DNA from: Escherichia phage atuna
Length of the DNA: 50,732 bases
Strand: one strand, 5' to 3'
Sequence record: NC_049819.1
The notes beneath the pieces were generated by a model. That model searched no databases. It was not told the DNA's origin and saw only the letters and a list, made by a program, of their open reading frames with translations. The translations under genes and the position numbers were made by a program. Every line of letters starts with the position of its first letter. Position 1 is the stretch's first letter. This document shows, one piece after another, positions 1 through 50,732 of this stretch.

Positions 1-279
1 TGCTGCACGCATACTATCAGGAATGTCAACCTTAACCTGCTTGTCAACTTCTTTTTTAGCAACCTGGATATGTTTAGCCAACAAAGCATCACACTCTTTT
101 TTAGTGTACGTTTTCCCCAGGATAACATCTGGTCCGGTGATTCCTGCGCAAACCGTCCATACCCCCGCAATATCTTTGTATGGCTTGTATCTTACCCCTT
201 CGATCTCTTCAAGAAGTGGAGAAGTCAAGGCAACCGCAACGCCAAAGGCCGCAGCCGCTACCCTGTTCTTTATGCTCAT
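1..279 (-). CDS. Endolysin, N-terminal 93 codons (GH24/T4-type lysozyme with hydrophobic SAR-like N-terminus); ORF runs off the window start and continues in frame at 50520-50732
   Basis: ATG at 279-277 on minus strand; translation [49 protein letters not shown] contains Glu/Asp/Thr lysozyme catalytic region; no stop before position 1. Confidence 0.8.
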
Positions 280-494
280 TACTTGCCCCTGATCTCAATA
301 GCTTTTTGAATATCACCTTTTTCGATCGCCTCATGGAATTTTTTACTATCACGCCAGCGAAGGTAAGCGCCCCATGCACCGAATGCAGCCATTAAAACAA
401 AGCTGGCAATAGCAATGGTTAACTGCCCTGTAGCGGCGCTTGCGATAGATGAACCGCCAGATCCGGCGGTAGCTGCGTTAATAAAATCTTTCAT
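279..494 (-). CDS. Holin (pinholin-like, 71 aa)
   Basis: Small protein with weakly hydrophobic Gly/Ala/Ser-rich segment then strong TM segment [21 protein letters not shown] and charged C-terminus; stop overlaps endolysin start (TAATG); position upstream of endolysin. Confidence 0.55.
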
Positions 495-562
495 TTTTAT
501 TCTCCATATTAATTAAAGTCAATATATTGACCGCATGATAAACGCACATGGTAAAAAATTAA

Positions 563-592
563 ACAAAAAAAAGAGGCGACAAACGCCGCCCC
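563..592 (-). terminator. Putative intrinsic terminator (GC dyad followed by T8 on minus strand) between phosphoesterase gene and lysis cassette
   Basis: Plus-strand A-run 563-572 followed by GC-rich dyad gaggcgacaaacgccgcccc; stem is imperfect. Confidence 0.4.
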
Positions 593-639
593 TTTGCAAG
601 TTTTTGATTTAATTTGTCATTGATTTAAATAAAAATTCA

Positions 640-1755
640 TCAATTCATCATTTCTGGATAGTGAACAAATCGCCCGACTTCTCCATGCTCTTTGTCGTAA
701 ATGATAACCGCTGCACGGCGTCGAGATCTCCAGCCACCTCGCGCGGCGTATGCGTCTTTTGCCGCCAGGGTGCTATGCACCTCCACGATGCCAAGCGACG
801 TTTCTGTCACGGTCTGGTGATGCCAGTGCCCTACGTGCGCATACATCGTTTTTGAGTTTCCGAAGTCCTCCCGCCAATCTGACGCGCACATCATTAGCAA
901 AGTCTCCGGTTTACGCACTGTGTGCCCGTGATGGTACGCAAGGAAAGTTTTTCCGTATTGCGTGTGGTGAACAACGCGAGGAGAAACATCAACGTAAACG
1001 CGCGGCTCGTTCTCATATGCTGCCGCCATTGCTGCGCGTAGCCAAATCATTCCTGATTGGTCGTGATTCCCCTCTACGATCTGGACCTCAACATGTTTAT
1101 GCTTTAACAGCATTTTATTAATTGCGCGGCGCATTGCACGTATTGCAACGTAAACCAATTTTGCATATCGGCTATCTTGATCAAGTACGTGACCGCTTGC
1201 AGGTGTCACCGCCTCCAGGCCGTCGCTATGCAGCATATCACCACCAATCAGGATAACAGCCTTTTCGCTGTCCGGTGCGCACATCAAAGCATAGTCGATA
1301 AAGTTATTCATGACGCGCTCTGCCGTCGCAGTATCCCAATTTTCGCCGCATTCGTGCTTATGGGCCATAGCGCCTAAGTGCATGTCAAAGATCGGATACA
1401 ATGAAAGCGTTTCATTATAATTACGCTCCTGCAATGGAACTGGATCTAATCGCGGCACTTCCTCGCTAAACGCCTCCATAGCTGCGCGCATCAGTGCCTC
1501 TAATTGCTCTTTATCCTTGCTGGTTTTGGTCCACTTGAGGATTATATTTCCTTCTTTGTCAGTCATTACTGACTCACCATGAACACCAAAACCAGGCGCT
1601 CCGATGGTCGATAACTGTCCTTGCTTTGCAAGACGCGCCGCGCGACGCTCAACGCTTCTCACATTCATTCCGTACTCTTGAGCGATCTGTTTATATGTCT
1701 TACCTGCCGCCCGTTCGATCTTGAATTGCTCATCTGTAATTTTTACATTTTTCAT
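640..1755 (-). CDS. HTH domain fused to calcineurin-like metallophosphoesterase (Mre11/SbcD/PP-lambda fold)
   Basis: N-terminal HTH-like KQIAQEYGMNVRSVERRAARLAKQG; phosphoesterase motifs DMHLG, GDMLHSDG, GNHD, HHGH, GHWHH; start chosen at internal Met (MKNVK) with upstream AGGT; longer ORF to 1905 possible. Confidence 0.6.
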   Translation of the reverse strand: MKNVKITDEQFKIERAAGKTYKQIAQEYGMNVRSVERRAARLAKQGQLSTIGAPGFGVHGESVMTDKEGNIILKWTKTSKDKEQLEALMRAAMEAFSEEVPRLDPVPLQERNYNETLSLYPIFDMHLGAMAHKHECGENWDTATAERVMNNFIDYALMCAPDSEKAVILIGGDMLHSDGLEAVTPASGHVLDQDSRYAKLVYVAIRAMRRAINKMLLKHKHVEVQIVEGNHDQSGMIWLRAAMAAAYENEPRVYVDVSPRVVHHTQYGKTFLAYHHGHTVRKPETLLMMCASDWREDFGNSKTMYAHVGHWHHQTVTETSLGIVEVHSTLAAKDAYAARGGWRSRRRAAVIIYDKEHGEVGRFVHYPEMMN

Positions 1756-1849
1756 TCTGCTACCTATCTCATCACTATATGGTACATAACTGTAACAGCG
1801 ATGATAACGGGTAACGGTAGAACAAACAAGCGCCACATGATAACTATCC

Positions 1850-2092
1850 TCATTTATAATATTTGCGAGGCTCTCGGATTTTAGCCATTGCCTCTTTGAA
1901 ATCAATTTTTGTTGGAACTGCTGGAACTCTTACCATTTTTCGCGGCCTTTCCTTGAGGAAAGTCATCTTGTCGCCGCTAATTATGCTCACATCTGCAATA
2001 TCAAAGTATTGCGCGATCTTCTTTATATCGTCGGCTATTCCGAATTCTTTAGCGTGATTCCATACCGCATCTCTACCTTGCTCAACCTTCAT
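1850..2092 (-). CDS. Hypothetical protein (80 aa)
   Basis: ORF; start at internal Met MKVEQ overlapping stop of upstream small ORF (ATGA-type coupling). Confidence 0.4.
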   Translation of the reverse strand: MKVEQGRDAVWNHAKEFGIADDIKKIAQYFDIADVSIISGDKMTFLKERPRKMVRVPAVPTKIDFKEAMAKIREPRKYYK

Positions 2093-2261
2093 GCTTATAA
2101 TATGCCTCCGCTTGTTCAATTGGCGCGTGACCGTATGCAACTTTCAGTAAAAACATTGCGATCTCCCAATCAAACTGGAATCCTTCCTTTGAACCGCCAT
2201 CCACTGAACCTTTTGCTACTTCTTGAGCAAGGTTAAAAGCGCGTTTATCGAATACCACCAT
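2082..2261 (-). CDS. Hypothetical small protein (59 aa), not in supplied ORF track
   Basis: ATG preceded by GAGGAAATAAAA Shine-Dalgarno; lies directly downstream of a promoter-like motif module; translation MVVFDKRAFNLAQEVAKGSVDGG... Confidence 0.35.
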   Translation of the reverse strand: MVVFDKRAFNLAQEVAKGSVDGGSKEGFQFDWEIAMFLLKVAYGHAPIEQAEAYYKHEG

Positions 2262-2318
2262 TTTTATTTCCTCATGTTTGCTTCGTTGAAATAATTATGC
2301 CCGACACTAGGCCGGGCG

Positions 2319-2338
2319 TTTTAACAAAAAGTGCTATT
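2319..2338 (-). promoter_or_regulatory. Conserved intergenic motif copy (exact AATAGCACTTTTTGTTAAAA on minus strand) + hairpin + ATAAT
   Basis: Exact 20-mer; followed on minus strand by hairpin cgcccggcctagtgtcgggc and ATAATT 23 nt after TTGTTA. Confidence 0.55.
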
Positions 2339-2594
2339 AGTGGATCATTCCGTGCTGAAAATTCCACGAATCGACAAACTCTTGCATGTCATTTCTGATT
2401 TGTTCGTGCCATTTTTCAAGCGGGAGTTTTCTTGTCTCCTCAAAGCTCATATCTAATGCGCTTGAAAATTCCCACGGATCGCAATCAATCATCTTTTTCA
2501 CGTTAGGGTTTTTATCAAGTGCATCGCACACCATAGCGCGAAATAACAACCACTCGCCAGTTTCATTTAAATAAACGCTTCTCTCTTTTTCCAT
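2337..2594 (-). CDS. Hypothetical protein (85 aa)
   Basis: ORF with stop embedded in conserved motif. Confidence 0.45.
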   Translation of the reverse strand: MEKERSVYLNETGEWLLFRAMVCDALDKNPNVKKMIDCDPWEFSSALDMSFEETRKLPLEKWHEQIRNDMQEFVDSWNFQHGMIH

Positions 2595-2598
2595 CGTG

Positions 2599-3351
2599 TT
2601 AGCTCCGTTTGCGTGCGCGACGTTCGGTTACAGAAGGGCAAATATCGCTGATCTTAACGTATCGCGTTTTCTGCTCCTCGCCTTCTTTAAGTTTGCGCAT
2701 GACAAAAATCACGCTTCCCTTGTTGTTGCCCTGCACAGGCTCGCCAGTCAATCCAGACACAAAGGCGATTCTTCCGGTGCGGGAGTATTCTACTCCACCC
2801 TCTTCGTAAACCTCGCCAGTGATCCAGATGATTTCAGCCGCGTTTTTCTGCGCCTCATAAAACCATGCTGTAGAGTTGTCTGCTGGCAACAAAACATCAA
2901 TTTGGTTGTTGTGCTCCATTTGCTCAATTGCTTTCTTGATAAATGGAGTTGGGTTGCTGTACGGCGGGTTAAGCCACACGTGCTTGTTGCTACCCCACCA
3001 ACGCTTTAAGCAGTTTGTCTCCTTGCTATAGAACTTCTCGCAAACTGCGTTTTCCTGGCTTGCTGCCGCGTCGAGATCGTATTCACCAAATTCTGATTCC
3101 ATCCACTCCACGATCTCTTGAGGTGTGCTCCACATATCGCGCACAACGTCCGGCGTAGTGCTTCCAGCGTATCGGTTTCCGCTTACCTTATAATATTGAT
3201 TTGGCTTTACTGCCTGGTAATGGCCTCCAGTTGCAAGGGCATTCCCTATAAACGTTTCTCTCTCCAACTGCTCAAAGCTAACGAATGCGTTATGGGTGTC
3301 TTTATCTAAAATATCTTTAGCCATTTTCATTTCTCCGCTATTAAAAGCCAT
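2599..3351 (-). CDS. dam: DNA N6-adenine methyltransferase (phage Dam-type)
   Basis: WLNPPYS catalytic motif (N/DPPY) in 250-aa protein; position next to helicase/VRR-NUC as in T1-like phages; GATC specificity is inferred, not seen. Confidence 0.7.
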   Translation of the reverse strand: MAFNSGEMKMAKDILDKDTHNAFVSFEQLERETFIGNALATGGHYQAVKPNQYYKVSGNRYAGSTTPDVVRDMWSTPQEIVEWMESEFGEYDLDAAASQENAVCEKFYSKETNCLKRWWGSNKHVWLNPPYSNPTPFIKKAIEQMEHNNQIDVLLPADNSTAWFYEAQKNAAEIIWITGEVYEEGGVEYSRTGRIAFVSGLTGEPVQGNNKGSVIFVMRKLKEGEEQKTRYVKISDICPSVTERRARKRS

Positions 3352-3389
3352 CTCGTGTTATTGAATTATGGCGCAATCCATCGCGCCAG

Positions 3390-3409
3390 TTTTAACAAAA
3401 AGTGCTATT
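3390..3409 (-). promoter_or_regulatory. Conserved intergenic motif copy (exact) + hairpin + ATAAT upstream of methyltransferase gene
   Basis: Exact 20-mer; minus-strand hairpin ctggcgcgatggattgcgcc then ATAATT at 23-nt spacing. Confidence 0.55.
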
Positions 3410-3824
3410 TAAGCATGTATTCAATAGCCAACTTAAACTGATTGAATCCGTAGGCTACCGCAGCGAATCCTCCTAAGCTGCGAACGCGACGCAAAAAAGC
3501 CTTTTGTTCATCGCTGACTGGTGATGCTTTCCCCTTGCCTGATTTATTCACTCGTTTGATCTCAATCGCTGCAAAGGGGTATTTTCCGTTTAAACCAATC
3601 AGGATGATGAAATCGCTTACTCCCTTAACCAAGCCGGACTGCTGATCAATCATCGCCGTTGCTTTAGACTTCTCATTCTCGTTTACCGTATGCCACGCCA
3701 GCAAATAAGGATGAGCATAAGTCAACCACTGAAAACTATCTATCTGGTGATTAACTTCCCTTCTCGTGTCGGTTGGATCCCTTTCGTAAAACTCAAGATA
3801 ATCGCCTTTATCAGTTATAGCCAT
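3405..3824 (-). CDS. VRR-NUC domain nuclease
   Basis: AIEIKRVNKSGKGKASPVSDEQKAFLRRVRSLGGFAAVAYGF resembles VRR-NUC E-x-K core; 139 aa. Confidence 0.55.
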   Translation of the reverse strand: MAITDKGDYLEFYERDPTDTRREVNHQIDSFQWLTYAHPYLLAWHTVNENEKSKATAMIDQQSGLVKGVSDFIILIGLNGKYPFAAIEIKRVNKSGKGKASPVSDEQKAFLRRVRSLGGFAAVAYGFNQFKLAIEYMLK

Positions 3825-5821: not shown

Positions 5822-5878
5822 CTTAAACCTTTAAAAAATGCCATTTGGAGTATATAATAGACTCATTACAATAAACTG

Positions 5879-17168: not shown

Positions 17169-17193
17169 CAAAAAAACCAGCGCAATGCTGGTT
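17169..17193 (-). terminator. Hairpin + T8 between HNH endonuclease gene and J-like gene
   Basis: accagcattgcgctggt followed by TTTTTTTT on minus strand. Confidence 0.5.
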
Positions 17194-17197
17194 AAAT

Positions 17198-17674
17198 CTA
17201 CTTTCCGTGGTTTATGTGGAATTTGTTTAAAACTTCAATCTCTATCCTCTTTTCTGCCGCATCCTGAAATGAATCAAAGTAAAATTCATGCCTAACACCA
17301 TCAATCTTTGCTCTTGCAATCCATTTTCCGCGACTAAAGTTTACTCCAGTAATTCCCGTCTTGCTGTTCCTGTAAAGCGACTTATTCTTGTTGTTAACAC
17401 TCATTCTAACAAGTCTTAAGTTTGAAATATTGTCGTTCATTGTGTTGTGATCTATGTGATCAACTTGCATTCCATGCGGTATTTCTCCATTATGAATTTC
17501 CCAAACTATCCTGCTCCTGTAGTATCTTTCTCCATCAATTGATATTCTAACCCTTTCTCCACTCTTCTTGCTTTTGCTTACGCTTCCTGCCTCACTTCCT
17601 TTCTTTATCCTTCTTCCTACGTCTACAGCCCAAAATAACTTACCGTCATTATAATAAAAAATATCACGCCACAT
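17198..17674 (-). CDS. HNH homing endonuclease with AP2 DNA-binding domain
   Basis: HIDHNTMNDNISNLRLV (HNH) and GITGVNFSRGKWIARAKIDGVRHEFYFDSFQDAAEKR (AP2-like); ATG 17674 after AAGGAGGTG. Confidence 0.8.
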   Translation of the reverse strand: MWRDIFYYNDGKLFWAVDVGRRIKKGSEAGSVSKSKKSGERVRISIDGERYYRSRIVWEIHNGEIPHGMQVDHIDHNTMNDNISNLRLVRMSVNNKNKSLYRNSKTGITGVNFSRGKWIARAKIDGVRHEFYFDSFQDAAEKRIEIEVLNKFHINHGK

Positions 17675-17717
17675 GATCACCTCCTTAATTAATTGTAAAG
17701 CGAAAATCCGTTTTCGC

Positions 17718-17737
17718 TTTAACATATTGTGCTATTT
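17718..17737 (-). promoter_or_regulatory. Degenerate motif copy (AATAGCACAATATGTTAAA) + hairpin immediately upstream of HNH gene
   Basis: Motif with TTTTT replaced by AATAT, followed by aaagcgaaaacggattttcgcttt hairpin and SD. Confidence 0.45.
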
Positions 17738-23590: not shown

Positions 23591-23609
23591 ATAGCACTTT
23601 TTGTTAAAA
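23591..23609 (+). promoter_or_regulatory. Conserved motif copy (ATAGCACTTTTTGTTAAAA), inverted relative to flanking minus-strand late genes; abuts SD of G-like gene
   Basis: Exact 19/20 match; plus-strand reading is followed 35-40 nt later by bidirectional hairpin aaggggcgcaacgcccctt + gtttt. Confidence 0.5.
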
Positions 23610-31970: not shown

Positions 31971-31990
31971 TTTAGCAATTAGTGCTATTT
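31971..31990 (-). promoter_or_regulatory. Motif variant (AATAGCACTAATTGCTAAAA) + TATAAT + hairpin/T-run upstream of portal gene
   Basis: Minus-strand reading: variant motif, TATATAAT, hairpin aaggctggatttttccagcctt, T7, ATTATGGAG, ATG. Confidence 0.5.
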
Positions 31991-33553
31991 ATTGCGTAGA
32001 CCTGCCAGCTTTTTCATCCTTGCCACCGGATCATCTGCCAAATTCATTTCGACGTTAACAGCATCAACTATATTATCGACAATATCATCATGGGGATGAG
32101 AATCATCAAAAGTGAATGCTGCAACCTCTGCCAGTATCTCAGGCAGCATGGGGTGATTTTCTGGCAGTGCCACACGTCCGGCCCTCATCACTGGCGCGGC
32201 GTCCATTGCTCGCGTTACCTTGTCATTGCTTCGCTGAACGGGATTTATATCAATCGGGATCTTCTTTTTGGCCCCCTGAATTAAACCCGTGCCGCTGGCC
32301 TTGTCCTCAATGTGGATACGTCGCAAGCTGCCACACTCCTTATTGCGCTTCCAGCACTGGTTAACGAAGGCAATAAAATTTAATTCAAGATCCGGCGCTT
32401 CCCACTTTCCGCGAATGCCATCAATGAAGTAAACGCGATTCTTATACATCCCCCAATAACAAAAAACTGAATAGTCGTTAAGCTCTCCGGCCTTCTGTGC
32501 GGTATCTCCAGTGATAAATGTGTATTCAAAGCGATCCGGTTTAGGAAGTGCGCATTTTTCGCCGCTGCCGTAATACTGGAACCACTCTGTTTTAAACACG
32601 TTCCCGCCCAGCGCGATTGGTTGCTGTTGGTATTGGCTGGCGAACGTGTAAGGATCTGCATTGCGCAATGCAAGCAATTCCTCCGCGCTTTCCTTTGCAG
32701 GCCAAAATGAATAATGAGCAACGCCATCTATCATCACTGGCTTACTTGATAGCACATCACGATCAAATTCAGGCTTCAACCAATCAGGAAGCGTTTCGCG
32801 GTATTCTTTCGTAACCAGCGCCGGAATGCTCACGACTTTAAACTCAATACCACCCATCCCGCCATTAAGCATGAACCAAGTGGAATCATTAACGTGTAGT
32901 CGCTGTTGCACCATAACAATTGGCGTGGTGTCTTTCATTCGACGCGATCGCACTGTGTTTTTTAACCGCATGTGAATAGCCTCGCGCTTGACCTTAGAAA
33001 GCATATCATCCGGCTTGTCTGGATCGTCAAGAACCAGCATACCAGTAAAACCATCGTCCATATAGCCGCCACGCAAACCTGTTACCTGGCCGCCAATAGA
33101 TCGTGAGTTAACTTGCAATTTAACCTTGCCGCCTTCGGTGACTATCAGATCTTTAGCGCTCGCCTTTGCCAGTTTTCCAGGCCATAGCTCTTGCCACTCA
33201 GGAGAACCAATAATCTCCTTTATCCTGTTGCTGTTTTGCTGGACAAGGCCATCACTAAACGAAAGGTTAAGGTTTCTCACCTTCCGGCTTTTCAATGACG
33301 CGTAGGGTGACATGTGGATCGAGAAAATCTCAGTCTTACCGCTACCTGGCGTAATGTTGAAAATCACATTCTGCGACTCTCCATTGATGATCTTCTCTAC
33401 CTCACTGCACAATAAGCTAAAATGCCAGTTGCTCTGGAATTTTTGCCCCTGTAATAGTTGGAACCAGATCCTGATCATCTTTTCGAATGAATGCTCACTG
33501 ATTTCTTTAATGGCTCGCTTTTGCGCCGCCGTCAAATCTTCCCATATGATCAT
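31985..33553 (-). CDS. Terminase large subunit
   Basis: 522 aa; Walker A-like PGSGKT; position after small subunit. Confidence 0.75.
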   Translation of the reverse strand: MIIWEDLTAAQKRAIKEISEHSFEKMIRIWFQLLQGQKFQSNWHFSLLCSEVEKIINGESQNVIFNITPGSGKTEIFSIHMSPYASLKSRKVRNLNLSFSDGLVQQNSNRIKEIIGSPEWQELWPGKLAKASAKDLIVTEGGKVKLQVNSRSIGGQVTGLRGGYMDDGFTGMLVLDDPDKPDDMLSKVKREAIHMRLKNTVRSRRMKDTTPIVMVQQRLHVNDSTWFMLNGGMGGIEFKVVSIPALVTKEYRETLPDWLKPEFDRDVLSSKPVMIDGVAHYSFWPAKESAEELLALRNADPYTFASQYQQQPIALGGNVFKTEWFQYYGSGEKCALPKPDRFEYTFITGDTAQKAGELNDYSVFCYWGMYKNRVYFIDGIRGKWEAPDLELNFIAFVNQCWKRNKECGSLRRIHIEDKASGTGLIQGAKKKIPIDINPVQRSNDKVTRAMDAAPVMRAGRVALPENHPMLPEILAEVAAFTFDDSHPHDDIVDNIVDAVNVEMNLADDPVARMKKLAGLRNK

Positions 33554-34122
33554 TAAAGTTGCTCCAGAATATCAATCACAGCCTCTTTCACCTCATCGGC
33601 AGTTACTGCGTCAATGCTTGCATTAGCTGCCGCGCTCGCTTCAACGCTCACTGTTGCTGGCTTCTCTACTCCGATCTCTTTACCGATAAATCCAGCGTTA
33701 ATCATGTTATTTGCCGCAAGCTGGAATTTTTGCTCGTAAATTACTTTATCAACAAACTCCATCACATCGCAGAATCCAGGCTCTTTACGCCATTTGCTTA
33801 CAGCCGCCTCAGTAACGCCGAGATACAAGCTGAATCCGTTAACCGTGAAAACGCGAGGCTTGTAAACTCTGCTCTCGTACACGTCACCCTGAAAGGAAGC
33901 AGTTTCAGCCGCCTGGATGTGATTCTCTTCGGCCCAAGTGAAATAGCGGATCGCCATATCAAAAACCTGTTCCGGCGTGTACTTGTGGCGGTTGTTTAGC
34001 GTAACAATATCTCCATAAGTTTTATTGTATAACTCTTTGAAATTTAATGCCTTTACAGCAGGCTCAACATTTTTAGCCATTGTTAATCCTCCTTTTGTTA
34101 GATGCCTGATTATACCAGACAA
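33553..34122 (-). CDS. Terminase small subunit (positional)
   Basis: 189-aa ORF overlapping TerL start (ATGA); preceded by SD AAGGAGG. Confidence 0.5.
   Translation of the reverse strand: MSGIIRHLTKGGLTMAKNVEPAVKALNFKELYNKTYGDIVTLNNRHKYTPEQVFDMAIRYFTWAEENHIQAAETASFQGDVYESRVYKPRVFTVNGFSLYLGVTEAAVSKWRKEPGFCDVMEFVDKVIYEQKFQLAANNMINAGFIGKEIGVEKPATVSVEASAAANASIDAVTADEVKEAVIDILEQL
34109..34117 (-). promoter_or_regulatory. Extended -10 promoter element TGGTATAAT upstream of terminase genes
   Basis: TGnTATAAT on minus strand about 25 nt upstream of SD; preceded by terminator hairpin. Confidence 0.5.
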
Positions 34123-39002: not shown

Positions 39003-39297
39003 TGCGCGCCATTTTGCGAAGCTGGCGGCTGGTTAGTTTGCGCGGATCGACTACGTGACTGGCAACAATTCGGCCTCCTGCAATCAATACTTTATTCCAA
39101 TGGTTATGGTTGCTTTGTTCTGTTGCATGCCATCTAAACATGAAGAACGCAGGAGAAATTCTGCCACGCAGAGAAGGCCTACACTTCCCGCGAGCGTCGC
39201 GATACATCGCGATTGAGGTGTTGCCTTTATGGTTTACGTGGTAAAGGTGAACCCCCATCTCGTTTGTGAATTTATAAATCGCATTGCGTACTAACAT
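38998..39297 (-). CDS. Hypothetical basic protein (99 aa)
   Basis: ORF downstream of a motif module. Confidence 0.45.
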   Translation of the reverse strand: MLVRNAIYKFTNEMGVHLYHVNHKGNTSIAMYRDARGKCRPSLRGRISPAFFMFRWHATEQSNHNHWNKVLIAGGRIVASHVVDPRKLTSRQLRKMARK

Positions 39298-40305: not shown

Positions 40306-40665
40306 TTAATCCTTAAACGCGTGAGCAATTTTGCTGTTAACCTTCGCTTTGATAATCGCGACGCAATAATCAGCCAGTCCGCCGCTTGCAATGCGCGATT
40401 GCTGATTATTAAATTCAATGATGGCCTCGCCAGTTTCGCCATCAATGAATCGCTCGCGTCCCCAATTGTCTGATATGCGAGCTACACGGGAAACAGCCAA
40501 GTAGGGATCGTCAATCCCGTAAAATTCCTTGACGGCCTTTTTGGTTAGCTCGTCCTTTTTCGCTACGATTTTCATCGCCACATTGTGACCAATCTGATCT
40601 ACTGACTGGTTGCGTTCGATGATATGGCTTACGCGAAAATCAACGTCTTTGTAGCTCTTGAACAT
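40306..40665 (-). CDS. Hypothetical protein (119 aa)
   Basis: ORF. Confidence 0.45.
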   Translation of the reverse strand: MFKSYKDVDFRVSHIIERNQSVDQIGHNVAMKIVAKKDELTKKAVKEFYGIDDPYLAVSRVARISDNWGRERFIDGETGEAIIEFNNQQSRIASGGLADYCVAIIKAKVNSKIAHAFKD

Positions 40666-40892
40666 TATTTGACTTCCTCAAAGGTTGCGATAAGGTCTGC
40701 GTAAGCGCAAATTGCGTTGCCGTTTTGACCGTTCAGGAACATACGGAATCCTTGATTGTTATTGACGTAAAACGATCCGGTTGATGTTCTCATTTTCTGC
40801 GCGGAGTAGATATGCCCCACTGTGAACATAAAGCCGCAACCTGGCGCTACACTGACACACTTCATTTTTTTCTGGATGATTAAACTTTCCAT
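40665..40892 (-). CDS. Hypothetical protein (75 aa)
   Basis: Start moved to ATG (MESLII) after GGGA SD; the ORF-track TTG start lies inside the promoter motif. Confidence 0.4.
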   Translation of the reverse strand: MESLIIQKKMKCVSVAPGCGFMFTVGHIYSAQKMRTSTGSFYVNNNQGFRMFLNGQNGNAICAYADLIATFEEVK

Positions 40893-40946
40893 CGCGTTTC
40901 CCATCTCGTTGAAAGTAGGGCCATTATACCTGGCCCCACATTTGAG

Positions 40947-41429: not shown

Positions 41430-41685
41430 TAATATCTGTTGTGACTTGCTGGTGCATTACGTTCTTTCCGCTGTTGTACGTGCTATCCGTTGCGCCTTTG
41501 CAATTGGTGTAATAGATCGCGCGACCGTTATCATAGAATCTGTATGCTGTGCATCCGTCAACAGTGAACAGGCGGCCGACTTTGAAATCTGACTCCACGC
41601 CTACGACAACCGTTGATTCTGATGCCTTTTCGCATCCGGTCAGGAGTGTCATTGCCACCAAAACACCGATTAACGCCTTTTTCAT
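41425..41685 (-). CDS. Lipoprotein (86 aa)
   Basis: Signal peptide with lipobox LTGC (MKKALIGVLVAMTLLTGC). Confidence 0.55.
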   Translation of the reverse strand: MKKALIGVLVAMTLLTGCEKASESTVVVGVESDFKVGRLFTVDGCTAYRFYDNGRAIYYTNCKGATDSTYNSGKNVMHQQVTTDIK

Positions 41686-42146
41686 TGTTCATCCTCCAGG
41701 AAAGTTTTTTTGATCATCGCGTGAAAGTCAGCGACGGCCTTTGATAATGTTTCATACTCTTCCGGCGCATAGTTTGCCAGGTTTGGCGACATATCAATGA
41801 TCGCCTCTGCAACCTTGCGCTTAGCCTGGCGCACCGCCCTTTCCAGTGCCTCTTTGTTGTAAACCTTGCGACGGCCTTCAACAATCCGCACCTCGTAGAA
41901 AGTGCTACCGAAGTTTTCATCTTCCGGCCCGTAAACGCCACGGGTAACGGATACGCGCCCCCGCTCGGCGACTTCTGGCACTCGACTCATGATCTGGCGA
42001 ATGTAGGCCGCCGGATTGCTTGCCGACTTCTTGCCGAACATGTGGACCTGCAAATACGCGTCAGGAATCTTGATCGTCTCTTCCTCGCCATTAGCCAGCA
42101 TAATAGCGGCACGGCGCAGCGTGTCAGTGAATGATTGCTCGCTCAT
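41682..42146 (-). CDS. Hypothetical early protein (154 aa)
   Basis: Start at ATG (MSEQSF) after CAGGAGGTAG; first gene of leftward early arm. Confidence 0.5.
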   Translation of the reverse strand: MSEQSFTDTLRRAAIMLANGEEETIKIPDAYLQVHMFGKKSASNPAAYIRQIMSRVPEVAERGRVSVTRGVYGPEDENFGSTFYEVRIVEGRRKVYNKEALERAVRQAKRKVAEAIIDMSPNLANYAPEEYETLSKAVADFHAMIKKTFLEDEQ

Positions 42147-42174
42147 TTCTACCTCCTGGTTGTTAGGTGTGGGC

Positions 42175-42203
42175 ATTATCAATAATGCTATTTAATGTGT
42201 CAA
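42175..42203 (-). promoter_or_regulatory. Sigma70-type promoter (TTGACA-N17-GATAAT) for leftward early arm
   Basis: Exact TTGACA, 17-nt spacer, GATAAT on minus strand about 30 nt upstream of SD of gene 41682-42146. Confidence 0.6.
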
Positions 42204-42510
42204 CTGTTTTTTCTTGTTCCCGCGTGTTTTATCAATTTTACATGGTGGCACAATAACAATATAGGCGTTATTTTTCCTTATAAATCAATGTTATCATTGC
42301 CTGTTATCTAAGTTTTCTCGCGGAAAGTGCCATATAGATATATATACCCCTACATACCCATACACACATACAGATACACAAAAACTATATACCCCCACCA
42401 AATACCACAATAACCAAGATAACAAAAGAGAATATATAGATACATATAAATAAATAATCCTTATTTTTCAATGTATTATATAGGTATTGTTTGTTATTTT
42501 TTGTTATCGT
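42196..42510. repeat. A+C-rich strand-skewed low-complexity element, copy B (homologous to 12141-12350, with about 100-bp extra segment)
   Basis: Shared blocks with copy A; sits in the 640-bp non-coding region between divergent early arms. Confidence 0.6.
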
Positions 42511-42741
42511 ATTTTGCGGAAGGTCAACAAAAGAACAGGCGGGAACGTAACATAACAACCACTGACAGCCAGGCGGAAAAGTGAGGCAAGAGGGGAAGGT
42601 TTCACTATCTCCCATGCAACCAATGATTAAACGTGATTGCTTTTCTCATCAAATTTGCAAAGGCAATCATCATTTTGACGTGATTTGATTACGAATGATT
42701 ACTTTTGATTATTTCGATCACAATCCTGGCGCTAACCGTCA

Positions 42742-42761
42742 AATAGCACTTTTTGTTAAAA
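42742..42761 (+). promoter_or_regulatory. Conserved intergenic motif copy (exact) + leader CATCGAAACGAA for rightward early arm
   Basis: Exact 20-mer about 60 nt upstream of ATG 42821. Confidence 0.55.
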
Positions 42762-42820
42762 CTCAGGCCACCTGATCGGGTACATTACACACATCGAAAC
42801 GAACCGCTCAGGAGATAGCA

Positions 42821-43782: not shown

Positions 43783-44046
43783 ATGAAAATTAATGCACCT
43801 ATTCCAGTTAAGCGCAAAGCACGTTTGCTCAATAACGGATGTTACGCCCTGCGGCCTGCATTTAAGGATCGCACATTTCCGGTTATCGTTAACGTGTCTC
43901 ACGTAAGCCGTAGCGGAAACCTGGTATTCGTTAAAGGTGAAGATCTGACGGCTCTTGGATTCTATGGCGGTGTTCACGGCGAAGCGCTCGGATTCTGGCT
44001 TGTGGATCCGTTAACTGGAGAGCGTGAAATCGAATTCCTGGACTAA
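43783..44046 (+). CDS. Hypothetical early protein (87 aa)
   Basis: SD TAAGGAG upstream. Confidence 0.45.
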   Translation: MKINAPIPVKRKARLLNNGCYALRPAFKDRTFPVIVNVSHVSRSGNLVFVKGEDLTALGFYGGVHGEALGFWLVDPLTGEREIEFLD

Positions 44047-44065
44047 ATAGCACTTTTTGTTAAAA
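44046..44065 (+). promoter_or_regulatory. Conserved intergenic motif copy (exact) + hairpin with TGGTATAGT + leader CATCGAAACGAAAC
   Basis: Exact 20-mer starting in the stop codon of upstream gene; TATAGT 22 nt after TTGTTA. Confidence 0.6.
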
Positions 44066-44123
44066 ACGATGCGCTGCTGATTGGTATAGTAAGCGCATCG
44101 AAACGAAACAGAGGATTTTCAAA

Positions 44124-44351
44124 ATGTCAGTAGTCGCCAACCAGAAAGCAATCGACCAGACAAACGACAAACGTTTTGCGATTTTCATCACTCGCAACCA
44201 TAAGCGCTACGCTGTTAAGGCTATCCCTGGCGGTTATGCTACATACATGGAATTGAGCGGCGGCTGGTATCGTTGTGAGAATCTCTCAAACTTCCTGGTA
44301 TGGAATGCGGAATTCCAGGGCTTTGATGATATTTCTTCAATCACTTACTAA
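44124..44351 (+). CDS. Hypothetical early protein (75 aa)
   Basis: ORF with SD cagagg. Confidence 0.45.
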   Translation: MSVVANQKAIDQTNDKRFAIFITRNHKRYAVKAIPGGYATYMELSGGWYRCENLSNFLVWNAEFQGFDDISSITY

Positions 44352-44365
44352 CAGGAGATCAAAAA

Positions 44366-44773
44366 ATGGTATCGCAGTCTCTTAAATTCATTGGCGAAAA
44401 CACCAGTCACGCATGGACTTTCACAAAAGGCGCTGAATACGCCGTATTGCGCGATGAAAAATATGGCGATGAGTATGTTCTTGATGATTATCGCGAACCT
44501 CTTTACATCTCGCGTGACGATGATAACCGATTCTATGGCACTGGCTTTGAAAGTTACGCTTTCCGACCAGTATTTGAAGAGGAATTACGGCCTATTTACC
44601 GCGTAATTGCAACTAATCGCGAGAATGGACGGGCCACCCTTTGTTATGCAGGCCATTTTAAAAAGAGAGCGCAAAATTGCTACAATGGCCTGAAAGATAA
44701 AGAATCAATTATTCGCGATCATCGTGTGACGCTCCAGGAGTTGCGGCCAATCACTATCGACACCACGGAATAA
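44366..44773 (+). CDS. Hypothetical early protein (135 aa)
   Basis: ORF with SD caggag. Confidence 0.5.
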   Translation: MVSQSLKFIGENTSHAWTFTKGAEYAVLRDEKYGDEYVLDDYREPLYISRDDDNRFYGTGFESYAFRPVFEEELRPIYRVIATNRENGRATLCYAGHFKKRAQNCYNGLKDKESIIRDHRVTLQELRPITIDTTE

Positions 44774-44792
44774 AAAGCACTTTTTGTTAAAA
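44773..44792 (+). promoter_or_regulatory. Motif variant (AAAAGCACTTTTTGTTAAAA) + hairpin with TGGTATATT + leader CATCGACAACAAAC
   Basis: 19/20 match, same architecture as 44046. Confidence 0.55.
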
Positions 44793-44848
44793 GTCGTATG
44801 CGGTAAGTTGGTATATTTACCGCATCGACAACAAACGAGGATTTAAAG

Positions 44849-45539: not shown

Positions 45540-45647
45540 GGCTATTTATTTTCAAAAACGCTTGGATGGTGGCGGTTGCAAATGACCATTACGGCGGCGA
45601 CGGAAAAAGAGCGCCACGTCATTCATATTTCAATTGAGGATATTTAA

Positions 45648-45875
45648 ATGAAAGCAAAAGTTTTAAACATTATGGCAACTATTGACGCTCATCACCGCGT
45701 GGCTGTAAAACTTGATAAGTCCTGCGGAATTAGCCAAATCACTATCACCGAGGGCAAAGGCGGCTATCTTATTGGTATCCATCCAGGCGGTAAGGTGCGC
45801 AAATACAATAAAGATCAGGTAAAAGAATTACTGGAAGAAAACGCTTTCTATATTCAAAGTTGGCGCTCTCTTTAA
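45648..45875 (+). CDS. Hypothetical early protein (75 aa)
   Basis: ORF. Confidence 0.45.
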   Translation: MKAKVLNIMATIDAHHRVAVKLDKSCGISQITITEGKGGYLIGIHPGGKVRKYNKDQVKELLEENAFYIQSWRSL

Positions 45876-45883
45876 TTAATCTG

Positions 45884-45904
45884 GCGGCGTTTTGCCGCCT
45901 TTTA
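45884..45904 (+). terminator. Hairpin + T-run (possible attenuating terminator)
   Basis: ggcggcgttttgccgcc followed by TTTT, then SD gaggtgg. Confidence 0.45.
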
Positions 45905-45917
45905 AATGAGGTGGAAA

Positions 45918-46034
45918 ATGATAGATAAAGCTATTGATTTCTTTTTTTATTCGATTATTGGCGCGGTTGGTTTTTTGGTTACTGCTGCTGGCCTGGCTAT
46001 TATCTTGGCTGTTATTAAGGGAGTTATGCGATGA
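45918..46034 (+). CDS. Small membrane peptide (38 aa), not in ORF track
   Basis: ATG after GAGGTGG; hydrophobic FFFYSIIGAVGFLVTAAGLAIILAVI; stop overlaps next start (ATGA). Confidence 0.3.
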   Translation: MIDKAIDFFFYSIIGAVGFLVTAAGLAIILAVIKGVMR

Positions 46035-46255
46035 GTCAGGACGGTTTTTTTGAGCGCCTTCAAATGGCAGAAGATGCCGGACTAAATAAAGAGGCGGCGC
46101 TTGAAGTGGCATATAAAATTAAGACTCTTGATGAGGCTTTAGGTGATATGGATATGGATCTTGAATCAAGCGCAATATTTGCAGATCCCACTATGATTGT
46201 TAATGATTGTGGATGCGATTTCGATCCTAGTTGTCCGCGCTGTTTTCCGTTTTGA
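46031..46255 (+). CDS. Small acidic protein (74 aa)
   Basis: Asp/Glu-rich, C-terminal Cys cluster CGCDFDPSCPRC; coupled to downstream methyltransferase-like gene. Confidence 0.45.
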   Translation: MSQDGFFERLQMAEDAGLNKEAALEVAYKIKTLDEALGDMDMDLESSAIFADPTMIVNDCGCDFDPSCPRCFPF

Positions 46256-46265
46256 GGTAATGACG

Positions 46266-46976
46266 ATGTATAAAGGTTTAATATTCTCCCTATTTGATGG
46301 ATCTGGTAAAGCCGTTAAAGATTGGGCTGATAATGGATATAAGTGCATTTGCTTTAATGCTGACGGTGGCGATCACGGTGATTACCAGTCAGTGCGCATA
46401 CAGCATGAGAATATCGAATACGTTAACGTCTGGATTGATGAAAGATTTTACCACCGCGCGCGCTGGGAGGAATGGGGCATTCCTGACTTTATTATGGCAT
46501 TTCCGCCGTGCACCGACCTTGCAAATAGCGGATCTCGCCATTGGGCCAAAAAACGCCTTGAGAATCCATCGTTCCAGGATGAGGCCGCCGACACTTGCAG
46601 AATCGCGGCTGATATAGCTGATTATTTCGGTGTTCCTTACATGATCGAAAATCCGGTTGGCAAGTTGTCAACGTTATGGCGAAAGCCTGATTATACGTTC
46701 CATCCGTGCGATTACGCTGGCTATCTGCCGGAAGATGATAAACATCCCGACTTCCCTGATATTATTCCGGCACGGGATCGCTATTTTAAGAAAACGTGCC
46801 TCTGGACTGGCAACGGCTTTGTTATTCCTCCTCGCGCTTTAATCCTGCCGAAAGAGGAAGACAAAGATAATCCAGGCTGGGCCAAAACTGGCGGTAAGTC
46901 ATCGCGCACAAAGATGATCCGCTCCCTCACTCCGCGCGGCTTTGCTCGCGCCGTCTTTGAGTCAAACTCAAAATAG
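46266..46976 (+). CDS. C5-cytosine methyltransferase-like protein (compact, about 237 aa)
   Basis: Motif I IFSLFDGSG, motif IV-like FPPC (catalytic Cys), motif VI-like ENPVG; no obvious large target-recognition domain; start ATG 46266 chosen for SD spacing. Confidence 0.55.
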   Translation: MYKGLIFSLFDGSGKAVKDWADNGYKCICFNADGGDHGDYQSVRIQHENIEYVNVWIDERFYHRARWEEWGIPDFIMAFPPCTDLANSGSRHWAKKRLENPSFQDEAADTCRIAADIADYFGVPYMIENPVGKLSTLWRKPDYTFHPCDYAGYLPEDDKHPDFPDIIPARDRYFKKTCLWTGNGFVIPPRALILPKEEDKDNPGWAKTGGKSSRTKMIRSLTPRGFARAVFESNSK

Positions 46977-46991
46977 CACTTTTTGTTAAAA
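46972..46991 (+). promoter_or_regulatory. Conserved intergenic motif copy (exact) + hairpin + CATAAT + leader CACATCGAACAAAC
   Basis: Exact 20-mer overlapping stop of upstream gene; ATAAT 23 nt after TTGTTA. Confidence 0.6.
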
Positions 46992-47045
46992 GCCAGGTGT
47001 AAAAACCTGGCATAATCACATCGAACAAACAAAGGAGATCTGATC

Positions 47046-47432
47046 ATGAATGTTATCTGTAATGAAACCAACGTATTGATGAAAGGCCGTTTTAAAACGG
47101 TTTATCAGAAGATTGCAGGAAGTGATGATGTGATCGAGGTGGAAGAGTTCCAGGTTAAGACGCTTGTTAAGGGTAGCCGCTGGCTTCCAGCAAACCGAGA
47201 TGATTACCGCGCCATTAACACAAAAACCGTTCTTTGCACGTTTGTAGATCATAACATGCCGTGCAAAAAGCACTTTAAGCAGGGCAAGCGATACCAGATC
47301 GAGAAAGGGCGACCGCTTGGAAGCGTTGCGGGTTATGTTTTTGATGAGTGCGGCGACCGCTGGAACCTGTACCGTGAAGAGGTCGGATTCTCTGCTGGCG
47401 GCTGTTATCTGTTTGAGGGCAAATATCTGTGA
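47046..47432 (+). CDS. Hypothetical early protein (128 aa)
   Basis: ORF with SD aaggag. Confidence 0.45.
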   Translation: MNVICNETNVLMKGRFKTVYQKIAGSDDVIEVEEFQVKTLVKGSRWLPANRDDYRAINTKTVLCTFVDHNMPCKKHFKQGKRYQIEKGRPLGSVAGYVFDECGDRWNLYREEVGFSAGGCYLFEGKYL

Positions 47433-47650
47433 TAAACAGTGAAAACCGTTACAAAGTAACGCATTCTACCACAAAGACTTTCAAGCCTGGCGATATAGTC
47501 AGGCCCATCAAAAAAACGGCGGTAGGTTGGCTGATTGGTTTTTCATATCATAAGGCGCTTTACTTTACGTTTAAGGATGGGATTACAGGAGAATGCTACA
47601 GCGACCGCCAGCCTGATCGACTTCTGGTTGCAATAGAGCGGATCAAATAG
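47429..47650 (+). CDS. Hypothetical early protein (73 aa)
   Basis: ORF, ATGA coupling. Confidence 0.45.
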   Translation: MINSENRYKVTHSTTKTFKPGDIVRPIKKTAVGWLIGFSYHKALYFTFKDGITGECYSDRQPDRLLVAIERIK

Positions 47651-47665
47651 CACTTTTTGACAAAA
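47646..47665 (+). promoter_or_regulatory. Motif variant (AATAGCACTTTTTGACAAAA) + hairpin upstream of P-loop NTPase operon
   Basis: Variant creates exact TTGACA; hairpin tgggccgttaaaatttacggccca follows. Confidence 0.55.
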
Positions 47666-47718
47666 CGGGGTAGTATTGGGCCGTTAAAATTTACGGCCCA
47701 CAAAGGAGAAGCTAACGA

Positions 47719-49299
47719 ATGTTTTCATTAGAAACGAACAAATTAACTCCACAGCAAATAATCGCTATGGCTGAAAGCCAGAACCTTTCACCAGTTCGCG
47801 TATCAATTCAGGCTAACGGCTATCGCCAGTCGTCCAGCTTTTGGGGCGACGTGAAGGATGTAAATAGCGGTCACGATCGCTACCCCGTAATTTCTCTTGG
47901 TAATGATATTGATGTTGTCGGCAAGCTATCACGCAGTATTGCGCGATCCGTTCAATTCCCTGAATCATCGGCTTACATGCACTTTATCGGCTGCATTTCT
48001 GCCGCCATGCTTGGACGCTTTACGGTTGACTATCACGGGACCGATCAGCCGACTGCGCTTTACGTAGTTACAAGCCAGCCGCCGTCAACTGGTAAATCTG
48101 CGATCAACAGTATGGCTATTGCTCCGATGATTGCGGAAGTTGAGAAGATCAACGAGCAACGCCGCAAGGAAAGAAAGAAAATACAGGCAAAGTTGGCAGG
48201 TCTTGCAAAGGAGATGAAAAGCGAAAGATCAGGCGCTGATATGGAATCTCTATACCAGGAAAAAGAGGATCTGGAGGAGAAGCTGGAAAAGATGTGTGAT
48301 ATAACTTTCCCTGTTTCAGATACAACTCCAGAAGGCTTGGCAAAAATCAACAACAAGCAAGGTAACTTTGCCGTAATATCTGACGAAGCAACAAGTATTA
48401 ACAGTCTGTTAGGCTTGACCTATGCCAATAGCGAAAGGAAGACTAACAGTGAGCTAGTGCTTAAGGCGTGGGATAATGGTCACGTATCAATTGCCCGTGC
48501 TAATGCTGACAATAACATGAGTTTTCGCGCGCTTGGATGTATGAGCGTTATAGCCCAGGATGAAACGATAAGCGGAATCATGGATGCTGGATCTCGCGGT
48601 ATCGGTGTGAGTGAGCGCTTTTTGTTGGTCCGTGAGGAATCATTCTTAGGCCGTCGCTCATTCATTGATGAAAATGGTGATTCTACCTATGAGGCGGTGG
48701 ATCCTGAATTGAAGGCCCAATATTATCAATTGGTGCATAACATCATGAGCGAATCAAATATATCGCTGAAAATAAGCCGTTCAGCTATGCGAGTGCTCAA
48801 CATTGCTCGCCAGGATATGGAACCGCATCTTGCAGACGGCGGAAAGTATTCTCATACAATGTTACGCGGTGCGCTGGGTAAAATGGATAAACAGGTGATC
48901 AGGCTTGCTTCCGTCCTGCATGTTATCCGCAACTGGTTTAATCCTGCCGGATACCCGCAGAAGTCGAAAGAGATCGACGTGGAAACAATGCAAGAGGCGC
49001 TGATCATGTTTCAGGAATTGAGCAAAACATACATTAGCGCCGCCAATGCTTCTGGTTATGCTGGTGATGATGCTGAAATGGGTAAATTGATTGAATTGAT
49101 CACTAGACACGGCAAGGCTAATAAAGGGATTCTGAATATCCGCGCCCTGTACGAATCAGCGAGAAAGGTAAAACCTTTCGTTGGTCAGGCTGGCGTAATG
49201 AAGAGGATAGAGGGGCACTTGCTGCCAATGCTGGAAGAAAGAAATTATGTTTGCGTGATTAATGGTGTTATTTTTGTCAATCCAATACTGCTGGGATGA
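47719..49299 (+). CDS. P-loop NTPase-like protein of unknown function (526 aa)
   Basis: Degenerate Walker A PPSTGKS and Walker B-like FAVISDEAT; internal coiled-coil; largest early-arm gene. Confidence 0.55.
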   Translation: MFSLETNKLTPQQIIAMAESQNLSPVRVSIQANGYRQSSSFWGDVKDVNSGHDRYPVISLGNDIDVVGKLSRSIARSVQFPESSAYMHFIGCISAAMLGRFTVDYHGTDQPTALYVVTSQPPSTGKSAINSMAIAPMIAEVEKINEQRRKERKKIQAKLAGLAKEMKSERSGADMESLYQEKEDLEEKLEKMCDITFPVSDTTPEGLAKINNKQGNFAVISDEATSINSLLGLTYANSERKTNSELVLKAWDNGHVSIARANADNNMSFRALGCMSVIAQDETISGIMDAGSRGIGVSERFLLVREESFLGRRSFIDENGDSTYEAVDPELKAQYYQLVHNIMSESNISLKISRSAMRVLNIARQDMEPHLADGGKYSHTMLRGALGKMDKQVIRLASVLHVIRNWFNPAGYPQKSKEIDVETMQEALIMFQELSKTYISAANASGYAGDDAEMGKLIELITRHGKANKGILNIRALYESARKVKPFVGQAGVMKRIEGHLLPMLEERNYVCVINGVIFVNPILLG

Positions 49300-49691
49300 T
49301 TATGTTTTTGCTTGATCTGTATAAATGGTGTGAGTCATACGACTGGTTTAACAGGCAGCACATAGCCAAATTTATCTATCAGCATAGAGAATGTGAGCGG
49401 CTCGCACGGGCCGCCGGACTTACTCCGCGAATGTTCTCCAGCCTTACATCTAAGGAATTTTGCGCAAGAATGATGACGGCTGGCTATATAGATGGGGTCT
49501 GCGGTAAATACTGGTCCAAAGGATCGTCAAAGCGGCCTTTCGGATTCGAATTGTATAGCCTGGATGGTATGCGCAACGACTGGGTCAGGGATATGGCTAG
49601 AATAGGGGAGATGGGCGATGATGAATTGTTCCAGGCAAAAGCTAATAGACAAGATCTTGAAGCACTGCGCCGTAAATTCAATATCACATGA
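49296..49691 (+). CDS. Hypothetical protein (131 aa), coupled to P-loop NTPase gene
   Basis: Start overlaps upstream stop (ATGA). Confidence 0.45.
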   Translation: MIMFLLDLYKWCESYDWFNRQHIAKFIYQHRECERLARAAGLTPRMFSSLTSKEFCARMMTAGYIDGVCGKYWSKGSSKRPFGFELYSLDGMRNDWVRDMARIGEMGDDELFQAKANRQDLEALRRKFNIT

Positions 49692-49807
49692 GGATTTTAT
49701 TCATGCTTTACTTACGCTACTTTATTCAGATATGCGCGCTTTTAGCACCACTGAACATGTTTTATGCAATGATGATGGTGTATTACTGGTTACGGTAAAG
49801 CGTATGG

Positions 49808-49827
49808 AATAGCATTTTTTGTTAAAA
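49808..49827 (+). promoter_or_regulatory. Motif variant (AATAGCATTTTTTGTTAAAA) + hairpin + leader CATCGAAACGAAAT
   Basis: Hairpin cgcccggcctagtgtcgggt is the inverted counterpart of the hairpin at 2300-2318. Confidence 0.55.
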
Positions 49828-49888
49828 CGCCCGGCCTAGTGTCGGGTATATTTGTTTCATCGAAACGAAATAACCAAAAGGTAAAATT

Positions 49889-50113
49889 ATGTCCAGCAAG
49901 TTTTTAGTAGTTCGCGTATATAATCATGACAACGGATCTTCTGCTGAAATCCCGACAATTTATGACAGGGATTTTGGATGGAGTGAGCAATCGGCTGTTG
50001 AAAATGAGCGCAAGATTGCAGAAATGTATGGCGACACTTGCAGCATTGAAGTAAGGCAGTACGACGAATCGAACAAGCCAACAAACGAAACTCATATGTG
50101 GCCCGACGCATAA
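49889..50113 (+). CDS. Hypothetical early protein (74 aa)
   Basis: ORF with SD aaaagg; last gene of rightward arm. Confidence 0.45.
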   Translation: MSSKFLVVRVYNHDNGSSAEIPTIYDRDFGWSEQSAVENERKIAEMYGDTCSIEVRQYDESNKPTNETHMWPDA

Positions 50114-50135
50114 AAATAAAGGAGGCATTAAGCCT
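50103..50135. terminator. Bidirectional terminator between rightward early arm and spanin gene
   Basis: A-run, aaggaggcattaagcctcctt hairpin, T-run. Confidence 0.7.
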
Positions 50136-50523
50136 CCTTTTTCTTTTCTCTCCAGTAAAGACAAATCAGCACAATTAACACAACCACGCATATGATTACC
50201 GGATCGTACCATCTGCCGTTATTACCCTGCACGACCTGAATTTTGTCTGCCTTGATGGTATTGGCCTGAATGGTTGATGTTGTGAAATCCTTCTTGCTGG
50301 ACGTGTCCACCTTGTCAACCGCAGATTCCTTTATTGTGGTTTTCTGTTTTGTGCTGGCGTCCTGCTTTGCTGTAATGCCAACTGTCTGCTTCACGTTCTC
50401 CGCGCCAGCCTGTGCTGTGATTTCCGGCTTACTGCCGATTAATCCGGTCAGTGGCGTAACGCTTGAACATCCAGACAAGATCACCGCCATTGCGATTGGT
50501 GTAAGTAAAAATTTCTTCATCAT
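50128..50523 (-). CDS. Unimolecular spanin (outer-membrane lipoprotein with C-terminal transmembrane anchor)
   Basis: Signal peptide with lipobox LSGC ([19 protein letters not shown]), Ser/Thr/Lys-rich linker, C-terminal [19 protein letters not shown] then basic tail; start overlaps endolysin stop (ATGA). Confidence 0.7.
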
Positions 50524-50732
50524 TTCAGATCCATTGTGCAATATTTGTATTCGACCTTGCGCCTGTTAAGTAAGCCTTTAGACTTCTCGCGCCTTCCTGT
50601 TTTGGGGTTATGGTAATACGTCCAACGATAAAGCTGATCGCAAGCCTCGTTTAATTTCCCCTGGTTGATGAGTTTCAGCATTGTTGAATTTCTGAAAGCT
50701 CCCACGCCTGCATTATAAGTGAATGAGTACAT
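50520..50732 (-). CDS. Endolysin, C-terminal 70 codons (continuation of ORF at 1-279 across the window junction)
   Basis: Translation [36 protein letters not shown] matches C-terminal lobe of T4/P22/P21-type lysozymes; in frame with 1-279 when the window is circularised. Confidence 0.8.

Follow-up and report, generated by a model that had tools for sequence, protein, structure and literature searches.

The genome record of Escherichia phage atuna is opened inside an intact endolysin gene

The sequence record of Escherichia phage atuna (NC_049819.1), hereafter the window, is the whole stretch of 50,732 bp (44.6% GC) that was analyzed, and its two ends fall within a single minus-strand gene that codes for an endolysin. 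This gene is intact in the biological molecule, and the opening of the record falls between its codons 93 and 94. The window is the genome of a virulent T1-like coliphage affiliated with the Drexlerviridae, Tempevirinae, and Warwickvirus, and the record almost certainly represents one unit length of such a genome, presumably packaged by the headful mechanism from a pac site and linearized at an arbitrary point. The opening inside the endolysin gene is an artifact of record keeping and not a biological feature, which is a property already known for T1-like records and nothing new.

Continuity of the endolysin gene across the record junction

The endolysin gene is present in the linear record as two parts:

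1..279, minus strand: endolysin 5' part, codons 1-93, with a signal-anchor-release (SAR) type hydrophobic segment at residues 7-23 and the triad E27/D36/T42; covers PF00959 profile positions 2-70 and aligns with 3HDE.
50520..50732, minus strand: endolysin 3' part, codons 94-163 plus TGA; covers PF00959 profile positions 71-125.

Translation of the minus strand yields 93 codons that begin with an ATG at 279..277 and run without a stop up to base 1, and a further 70 codons in the frame 50732..50520 that end with a TGA at 50522..50520. When joined (279..1 + 50732..50520), the two parts are in frame and encode a protein of 163 aa. The initial annotation, which was made from the letters of the window and a list of its open reading frames (ORFs), had described a minus-strand frame that lacks a stop from 279 onward and continues in frame at 50732 (279 nt being 93 codons), and this can be read directly from the sequence. 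Its translation of the second part was in the correct frame but omitted the leading methionine, which is without consequence.

The match of the joined frame to lysozymes is far beyond chance. A single match to the Pfam family Phage_lysozyme (PF00959) covered residues 25-154 of the joined protein and positions 2-125 of the 125 in the profile (E 5.3e-39), and the protein also matched the PHROG 7 endolysin family (E 2.9e-55). When the halves were scored apart against PF00959, the N-terminal half matched profile positions 2-70 and the C-terminal half positions 71-125. The two halves are thus complementary at positions 70 and 71 of the profile, and therefore no residue has been lost or doubled at the join. 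Comparison with annotated phage proteins using blastp supports this result, since the joined protein aligned without gaps over 163 of 163 residues with the endolysin that is annotated in MikeNSara (98.8% identity) and, also without gaps, over 162 aa with T1 gp12 (65.4%) and TLS LysN (71.6%).

Among solved structures, the best match of the joined protein was 3HDE (E 6.5e-47, residues 2-159), and this alignment is ungapped at the join, where DIPDSMRAA and MYSFTYNAG, the residues to either side of it, stand opposite DIPETMRGALYSFVYNVG. We take PDB entries 3HDE and 3HDF, which the database names only 'Lysozyme', to be R of phage 21, a structurally characterized SAR endolysin. Both the hydrophobic N-terminal segment and the catalytic triad (E27-x8-D36-x5-T42, aligned with phage 21 R) fall within the aligned residues 2-159. 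Residues 7-23, which align to the SAR region of 3HDE, are Ala/Gly-rich and weakly hydrophobic (53% G/A/S/T; mean Kyte-Doolittle value 2.0). The two proteins differ in that the linker from the SAR segment to the catalytic Glu is six residues shorter in the window endolysin, which also has a six-residue insertion near the C-terminus. These features predict a SAR endolysin of the phage 21 R type with a GH24/T4-lysozyme fold. The joined protein had previously been likened to lysozymes of the T4, P22, and P21 type; the likeness to phage 21 R is strong, whereas matches are weak to the entries that we assign to the lysozymes of P22 (E 2.8e-9) and T4 (E ~5e-4, N-terminal part only).

The junction and unit length among related genomes

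At the DNA level, a 3-kb query composed of the last 1,500 and the first 1,500 bases of the window was compared with phage records. Of the 151 records that matched, 94 did so across 80% or more of the query, and in the best 30 of these 94 records 100% of the junction was matched as one aligned piece. The top match was Poky (99.1%, 3,000 nt on 3,000 nt). In blastn comparisons, bases 50732 and 1 of the window correspond to bases 32943 and 32942 of MikeNSara, which are neighbors, while the ends of the MikeNSara record (bases 1 and 50759) correspond to the neighboring window bases 33553 and 33554, such that each record closes the break in the other. The expectation that the joined sequence would give a single continuous lysozyme alignment is thus borne out by blastp and Pfam, with the DNA of the junction recovered in one piece.

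No exact overlap of 5-2000 nt was detected between the ends of the window, and a search of the whole window for long direct repeats found none, with only a family of ~20-nt intergenic elements being seen. The record is therefore exactly one unit length. Each half of the window shares 96-98% identity with Drexlerviridae/Tempevirinae/Warwickvirus coliphages with genomes of 49.7-52.7 kb, and eight collinear blocks shared with MikeNSara (50,759 bp) extend around the full circle, accounting for ~48.4 of the 50.7 kb at 97-99% identity. The gaps without a match are internal and none is located at the junction. This collinearity around the circle indicates that the window is one complete genome unit. 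The ICTV criterion for a genus is a nucleotide identity of at least 70% across the length of the genome; ~95% of the window is 97-99% identical to MikeNSara, which is classified as Warwickvirus, and identity at the genus level holds likewise for tiwna, tonnikala, and mar001J1. MikeNSara (OR896827), Poky (OL539445), and tiwna (NC_054896) share ~98% nucleotide identity around the circle and gene order with the window, and the holin and the small and large terminase subunits (TerS and TerL) of MikeNSara are 100% identical to those of the window.

Records of relatives are opened at various points. The MikeNSara record begins at the ATG of terL, those of Poky and FritzSarasin near terS, that of SECphi27 at the ATG of dam (window 3326), that of Kalemo at the first early gene, and that of XY3 in the non-coding origin region, whereas the window is opened inside the endolysin gene. 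T1 and TLS are opened at the mapped pac end. For its figures, the study that is the likely source of the window altered genomes 'to have similar starting points'. The initial annotation had described the sequence as a circular or terminally redundant assembly opened inside the endolysin gene, and the reciprocal closure with MikeNSara, the collinearity around the circle, and the varied openings of relatives all uphold that description.

Three other explanations of the join can be weighed against these data. An incomplete or over-long contig, with ends that fall in the same gene by chance and a few bases lost or doubled at the join, is a generic worry for any seemingly circular contig and had no specific support here. 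The profile halves abut, the protein alignments are gapless, the ends are adjacent in MikeNSara, no terminal overlap exists, and the 3,000-nt junction corresponds to exactly 3,000 nt in Poky; this explanation is extremely unlikely and is already refuted at the resolution of relatives with 98-99% identity. A chimera of different T1-like phages co-isolated from a mixed lysate might be considered in light of the lysates with 2-4 phages that the likely source study reported. However, Poky is 99.2% identical over window positions 1-3000 and 99.1% identical over the 3-kb junction, such that both sides are alike, and collinearity of the window with individual genomes holds over the full circle, leaving a chimeric join exceedingly improbable.

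We likewise give almost no credence to a replicon that is truly circular, for instance a plasmid-prophage, even though the map is circular and the record of the relative XY3 is flagged 'circular'. No integrase, partition, or plasmid-replication gene is named among the features of the 98%-identical MikeNSara annotation, and the window is a Drexlerviridae genome. In the literature, T1 and its relatives are regarded as virulent phages whose virion DNA is linear and terminally redundant (PMC11447400; PMC7718038; PMC13164509).

Two further observations were made in these comparisons. Segments without a megablast match in MikeNSara are located at 17193-17734, 39058-39266, 40309-40940, 41431-41632, and 44066-44775 of the window and likely represent small replacements of accessory genes. 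In addition, 20-22 unannotated records of 47-50 kb are labeled 'Campylobacter phage' with the host C. jejuni (e.g., MG065636, MG065649, MG065681, and MG065687). The seven of these that were listed are ~78-83% identical to window positions 1-3000, and C. jejuni seems doubtful as their host; the records may correspond to phages of E. coli, obtained from clinical samples, that PMC7718038 cites.

Terminase type and the candidate packaging region

An arbitrary opening is the expected outcome if packaged molecules are terminally redundant and permuted, and three features of the window bear on its packaging:

33553..34080, minus strand: TerS, 175 aa, P22 gp3 type; starts at Met15 of the listed ORF; Pfam PF16677 GP3_package, E 4e-11.
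31985..33553, minus strand: TerL, 522 aa; Pfam Terminase_6C.
42147..42820, no strand assigned: gene-poor region, candidate pac; ~670 bp of non-coding DNA between divergent early gene blocks, with synteny to the record origins of T1 and TLS.

TerS of the window is 54% identical to T1 TerS, 46% to TLS TerS, and 100% to a terS-like feature of MikeNSara, and TerL is 65, 62, and 100% identical to its counterparts in T1, TLS, and MikeNSara, respectively. These homologies predict a terminase of the headful/pac type. The MikeNSara record describes its small terminase solely as a misc_feature, 'similar to terminase small subunit' (50233-50757; window 33553-34080), yet this feature translates to an intact 175-aa protein that is 100% identical to TerS of the window. 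The misc_feature is probably an artifact of the annotation pipeline near the end of that record.

Headful packaging initiated at pac has been shown experimentally, in TLS by restriction mapping and earlier in T1 (PMC11447400; PMC5238451), and reports of new T1-like genomes take headful packaging for granted (PMC7718038; PMC13164509). A set of 22 T1-like genomes, Poky included, was 'circularized upon assembly' (PMC9119101). If the window phage behaves in the same manner, its virion DNA would be linear and slightly longer than one genome; the P22-gp3-type TerS together with TerL would start at pac on a concatemer and cut headfuls one after another; and the packaged molecules would be terminally redundant and partly circularly permuted. 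Shotgun reads of such a permuted population would assemble as a circle, which the assembler or depositor would then open somewhere. The earlier attribution of the circular assembly to a terminally redundant, permuted population fits the TerS type, the homology of TerL to those of T1 and TLS, and the packaging demonstrated for these two phages.

The records of T1 and TLS begin in a non-coding stretch of 700-780 bp between divergent early gene blocks, and window positions 42147-42820 have the same arrangement. The flanking ORF (41682..42182, minus strand) is a homolog of TLS gp01 (tblastn E 4e-17; 30% identical). When the three origin regions were compared with MAFFT, the alignment was weak and set the origins of T1 and TLS opposite window positions 42,665 and 42,657, and position 1 of the XY3 record corresponds to window position 42605. 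Transfer of the T1/TLS pac to the window by BLAST and MAFFT placed the region and revealed no convincing shared motif, with GATT-type iterons present in all three. GATTA/TGATT iterons at ~42680-42725 and AT-rich, low-complexity ATATA/ACACA sequence at ~42330-42460 have analogs around the mapped pac origin of T1 and TLS. Collectively, these observations suggest that 42147-42820 is a candidate packaging-initiation site and early-promoter region. The first early gene itself (41682..42182) is unlike that of Kalemo, XY3, and ityhuna, in which only its 3' end matches (differing part 41697-42182).

The T1 record has a repeat_region at 1..2800, and the position of this repeat at the left end implies that T1 packages rightward from its origin, which in the window would be toward lower coordinates. 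The ends of successive headfuls would therefore be expected below ~42.7 kb, displaced by ~1 kb per headful if as in TLS (PMC11447400) or by 2.8 kb if as in T1. From homology and the literature, we infer headful packaging, a pac site at ~42.15-42.82 kb, and this direction of packaging. The initial annotation had stated that physical ends, pac, and terminal redundancy cannot be read from the sequence; this remains valid for the exact site and the redundancy but not for the region, which synteny places at ~42.15-42.82 kb. The break in the record is ~8.07 kb from the equivalent of the mapped origins and on the other side, and therefore is not a predicted physical end. With the T1/TLS origin equivalent ~8 kb away, the break is arbitrary.

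These data also bear on whether the ends of the record are fixed physical ends within the endolysin gene, either cos ends or collapsed short direct terminal repeats, with the gene being restored by circularization or by the repeat. Assemblers do merge direct terminal repeats into one copy and break such genomes at points that are arbitrary or related to the repeat (PhageTerm paper). However, the mapped ends of T1 and TLS, at the equivalent of ~42.66 kb, do not coincide with the ends of the record, and TerS is of the P22 gp3 headful type. Relatives with ~98% identity are opened elsewhere and all are continuous through this site, and successive headful ends of the T1 type would step away from the break. 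Fixed ends at this position are very improbable. It is similarly very unlikely that the opening reflects a real discontinuity in virion DNA, such as a secondary preferred terminase site or a coverage step, for which the sequence offers no support; were this so, the packaging series would be unlike the T1/TLS model.

Several points weigh against a unit-length, pac-headful genome opened at an arbitrary position. The alignment of the origin regions is weak, and the terminal redundancy, permutation, and use of pac in this particular phage would follow from its relatives by analogy. The pac motif of TLS was itself assigned solely from a 6-nt resemblance to that of P22 (PMC11447400). Lastly, an exact search for a 40-nt junction sequence in IMG/VR contigs yielded 0 matches, but this result carries no information, since an exact search misses sequences at 98% identity and since warwickviruses are reported to be absent there; in the likely source study they matched no uncultivated viral genomes (PMC7552041).

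The lysis cassette, its annotation, and comparison with T1 and TLS

The endolysin gene is part of a lysis cassette on the minus strand, in which the holin, SAR endolysin, and unimolecular spanin (u-spanin) genes are translationally coupled. In addition to the two endolysin parts, the cassette comprises the following features:

570..595, minus strand: terminator-like hairpin, 11-bp stem plus T-run, from a consensus scan only; between the exonuclease gene and the holin gene.
279..494, minus strand: holin, 71 aa; PHROG 2877, E 3.8e-32; identity of 100% with the holin of MikeNSara and 55% with gp13 of T1.
50128..50523, minus strand: u-spanin, 131 aa; PHROG 1804 Rz-like spanin, E 1.4e-46; 46% identical to T1 gp11 and 52% to TLS RzlA.
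50118..50140, both strands: terminator-like hairpin, bidirectional, from a consensus scan only; overlaps the 3' end of the spanin gene.

The TAA of the holin gene overlaps the ATG of the endolysin gene (TAATG), and the ATG of the spanin gene overlaps the TGA of the endolysin gene (ATGA). The spanin combines a lipobox (LSGC, residues 16-19, with Cys19) and a C-terminal transmembrane segment (~108-124) in one polypeptide, as in T1 gp11. The terminator-like hairpins mark the upstream (570..595) and downstream (50118..50140) edges of the cassette, and therefore it is the whole cassette that straddles the junction of the record; T1 has an annotated terminator at the place equivalent to 50118..50140. 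The cassette matches the pinholin/SAR-endolysin/u-spanin architecture described for T1 (PMC13164509).

The significance of the opening is practical, in that linear gene callers truncate the endolysin in such records. In the list of ORFs made from the linear record, the C-terminal fragment at 50520..50732 (minus strand) appears as a complete 70-aa ORF because codon 94 happens to be Met, while 1..279 is omitted. Neither the SAR segment nor the triad is present in the listed fragment, and an automated pipeline run on the linear record would probably report a shortened 'endolysin' without catalytic meaning. Rotation of the record to terS, terL, or a T1-type origin restores the 163-aa gene and the lysis cassette and eases comparison with relatives. 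The ends of T1-like records carry no information on physical ends. Nextera libraries would not retain termini (PhageTerm paper), and an analysis of reads with PhageTerm would probably fail if the reads come from the Nextera libraries that the likely source study prepared.

The only family seen in the search for direct repeats is a 20-nt intergenic element, ATAGCACTTTTTGTTAAAAC, of which 16 copies were identified at ≤3 mismatches when 0.02 were expected:

2318-2337, 3389, 5878, 36187, 38982, 39353, 40946, 41409, minus strand: copies of ATAGCACTTTTTGTTAAAAC.
23591, 27344, 42743, 44047, 44774, 46973, 47647, 49809, plus strand: copies of ATAGCACTTTTTGTTAAAAC.

Fourteen of the 16 copies are oriented with local transcription, with those at 23591 and 27344 pointing against the structural-gene block. 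A sequence like TGGTATATT typically follows ~20 nt after the element and, in our own reading, looks like an extended -10 promoter element. Exact matches of 20-21 nt to T1 and TLS span the element, and the element is the window counterpart of the '18 intergenic 21-base repeats' of TLS (PMC11447400). The TLS repeats point with transcription, as do most copies in the window.

T1 (NC_005833) is the prototype of a pac-headful phage with limited permutation, and its modules are in the same order as those of the window. The pac site of T1 was reportedly tested in the 1980s by phage-mediated plasmid transduction. The two share the holin/endolysin/u-spanin cassette beside a DNA repair exonuclease gene, the divergent non-coding early region, and the 20-nt intergenic element, and TerL, the portal, and the endolysin of T1 are each 65% identical to those of the window. 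They differ in that T1 belongs to the subfamily Tunavirinae, with DNA identity to the window of ~64-72% in patches only, and in that its record, unlike the window, starts from the mapped pac end and carries an annotated terminal repeat of 2.8 kb. In addition, one or more early genes are located on the opposite arm. Window positions 44046-44332 (plus strand) match T1 1449-1740, a stretch with most of ST75 and the ST76 3' end, in the orientation opposite to all other T1 matches, and the gene therefore occupies the opposite arm of this divergent early region in comparison with T1.

TLS (NC_009540) is, like the window, affiliated with the Tempevirinae but with a different genus, and its pac site and terminal redundancy have been mapped by restriction analysis. 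Its endolysin is 72%, TerL 62%, and u-spanin 52% identical to those of the window, and a homolog of its gp01 flanks the origin region. The non-coding origin of TLS is barely alignable with that of the window, and therefore its pac assignment is not transferable at nucleotide resolution.

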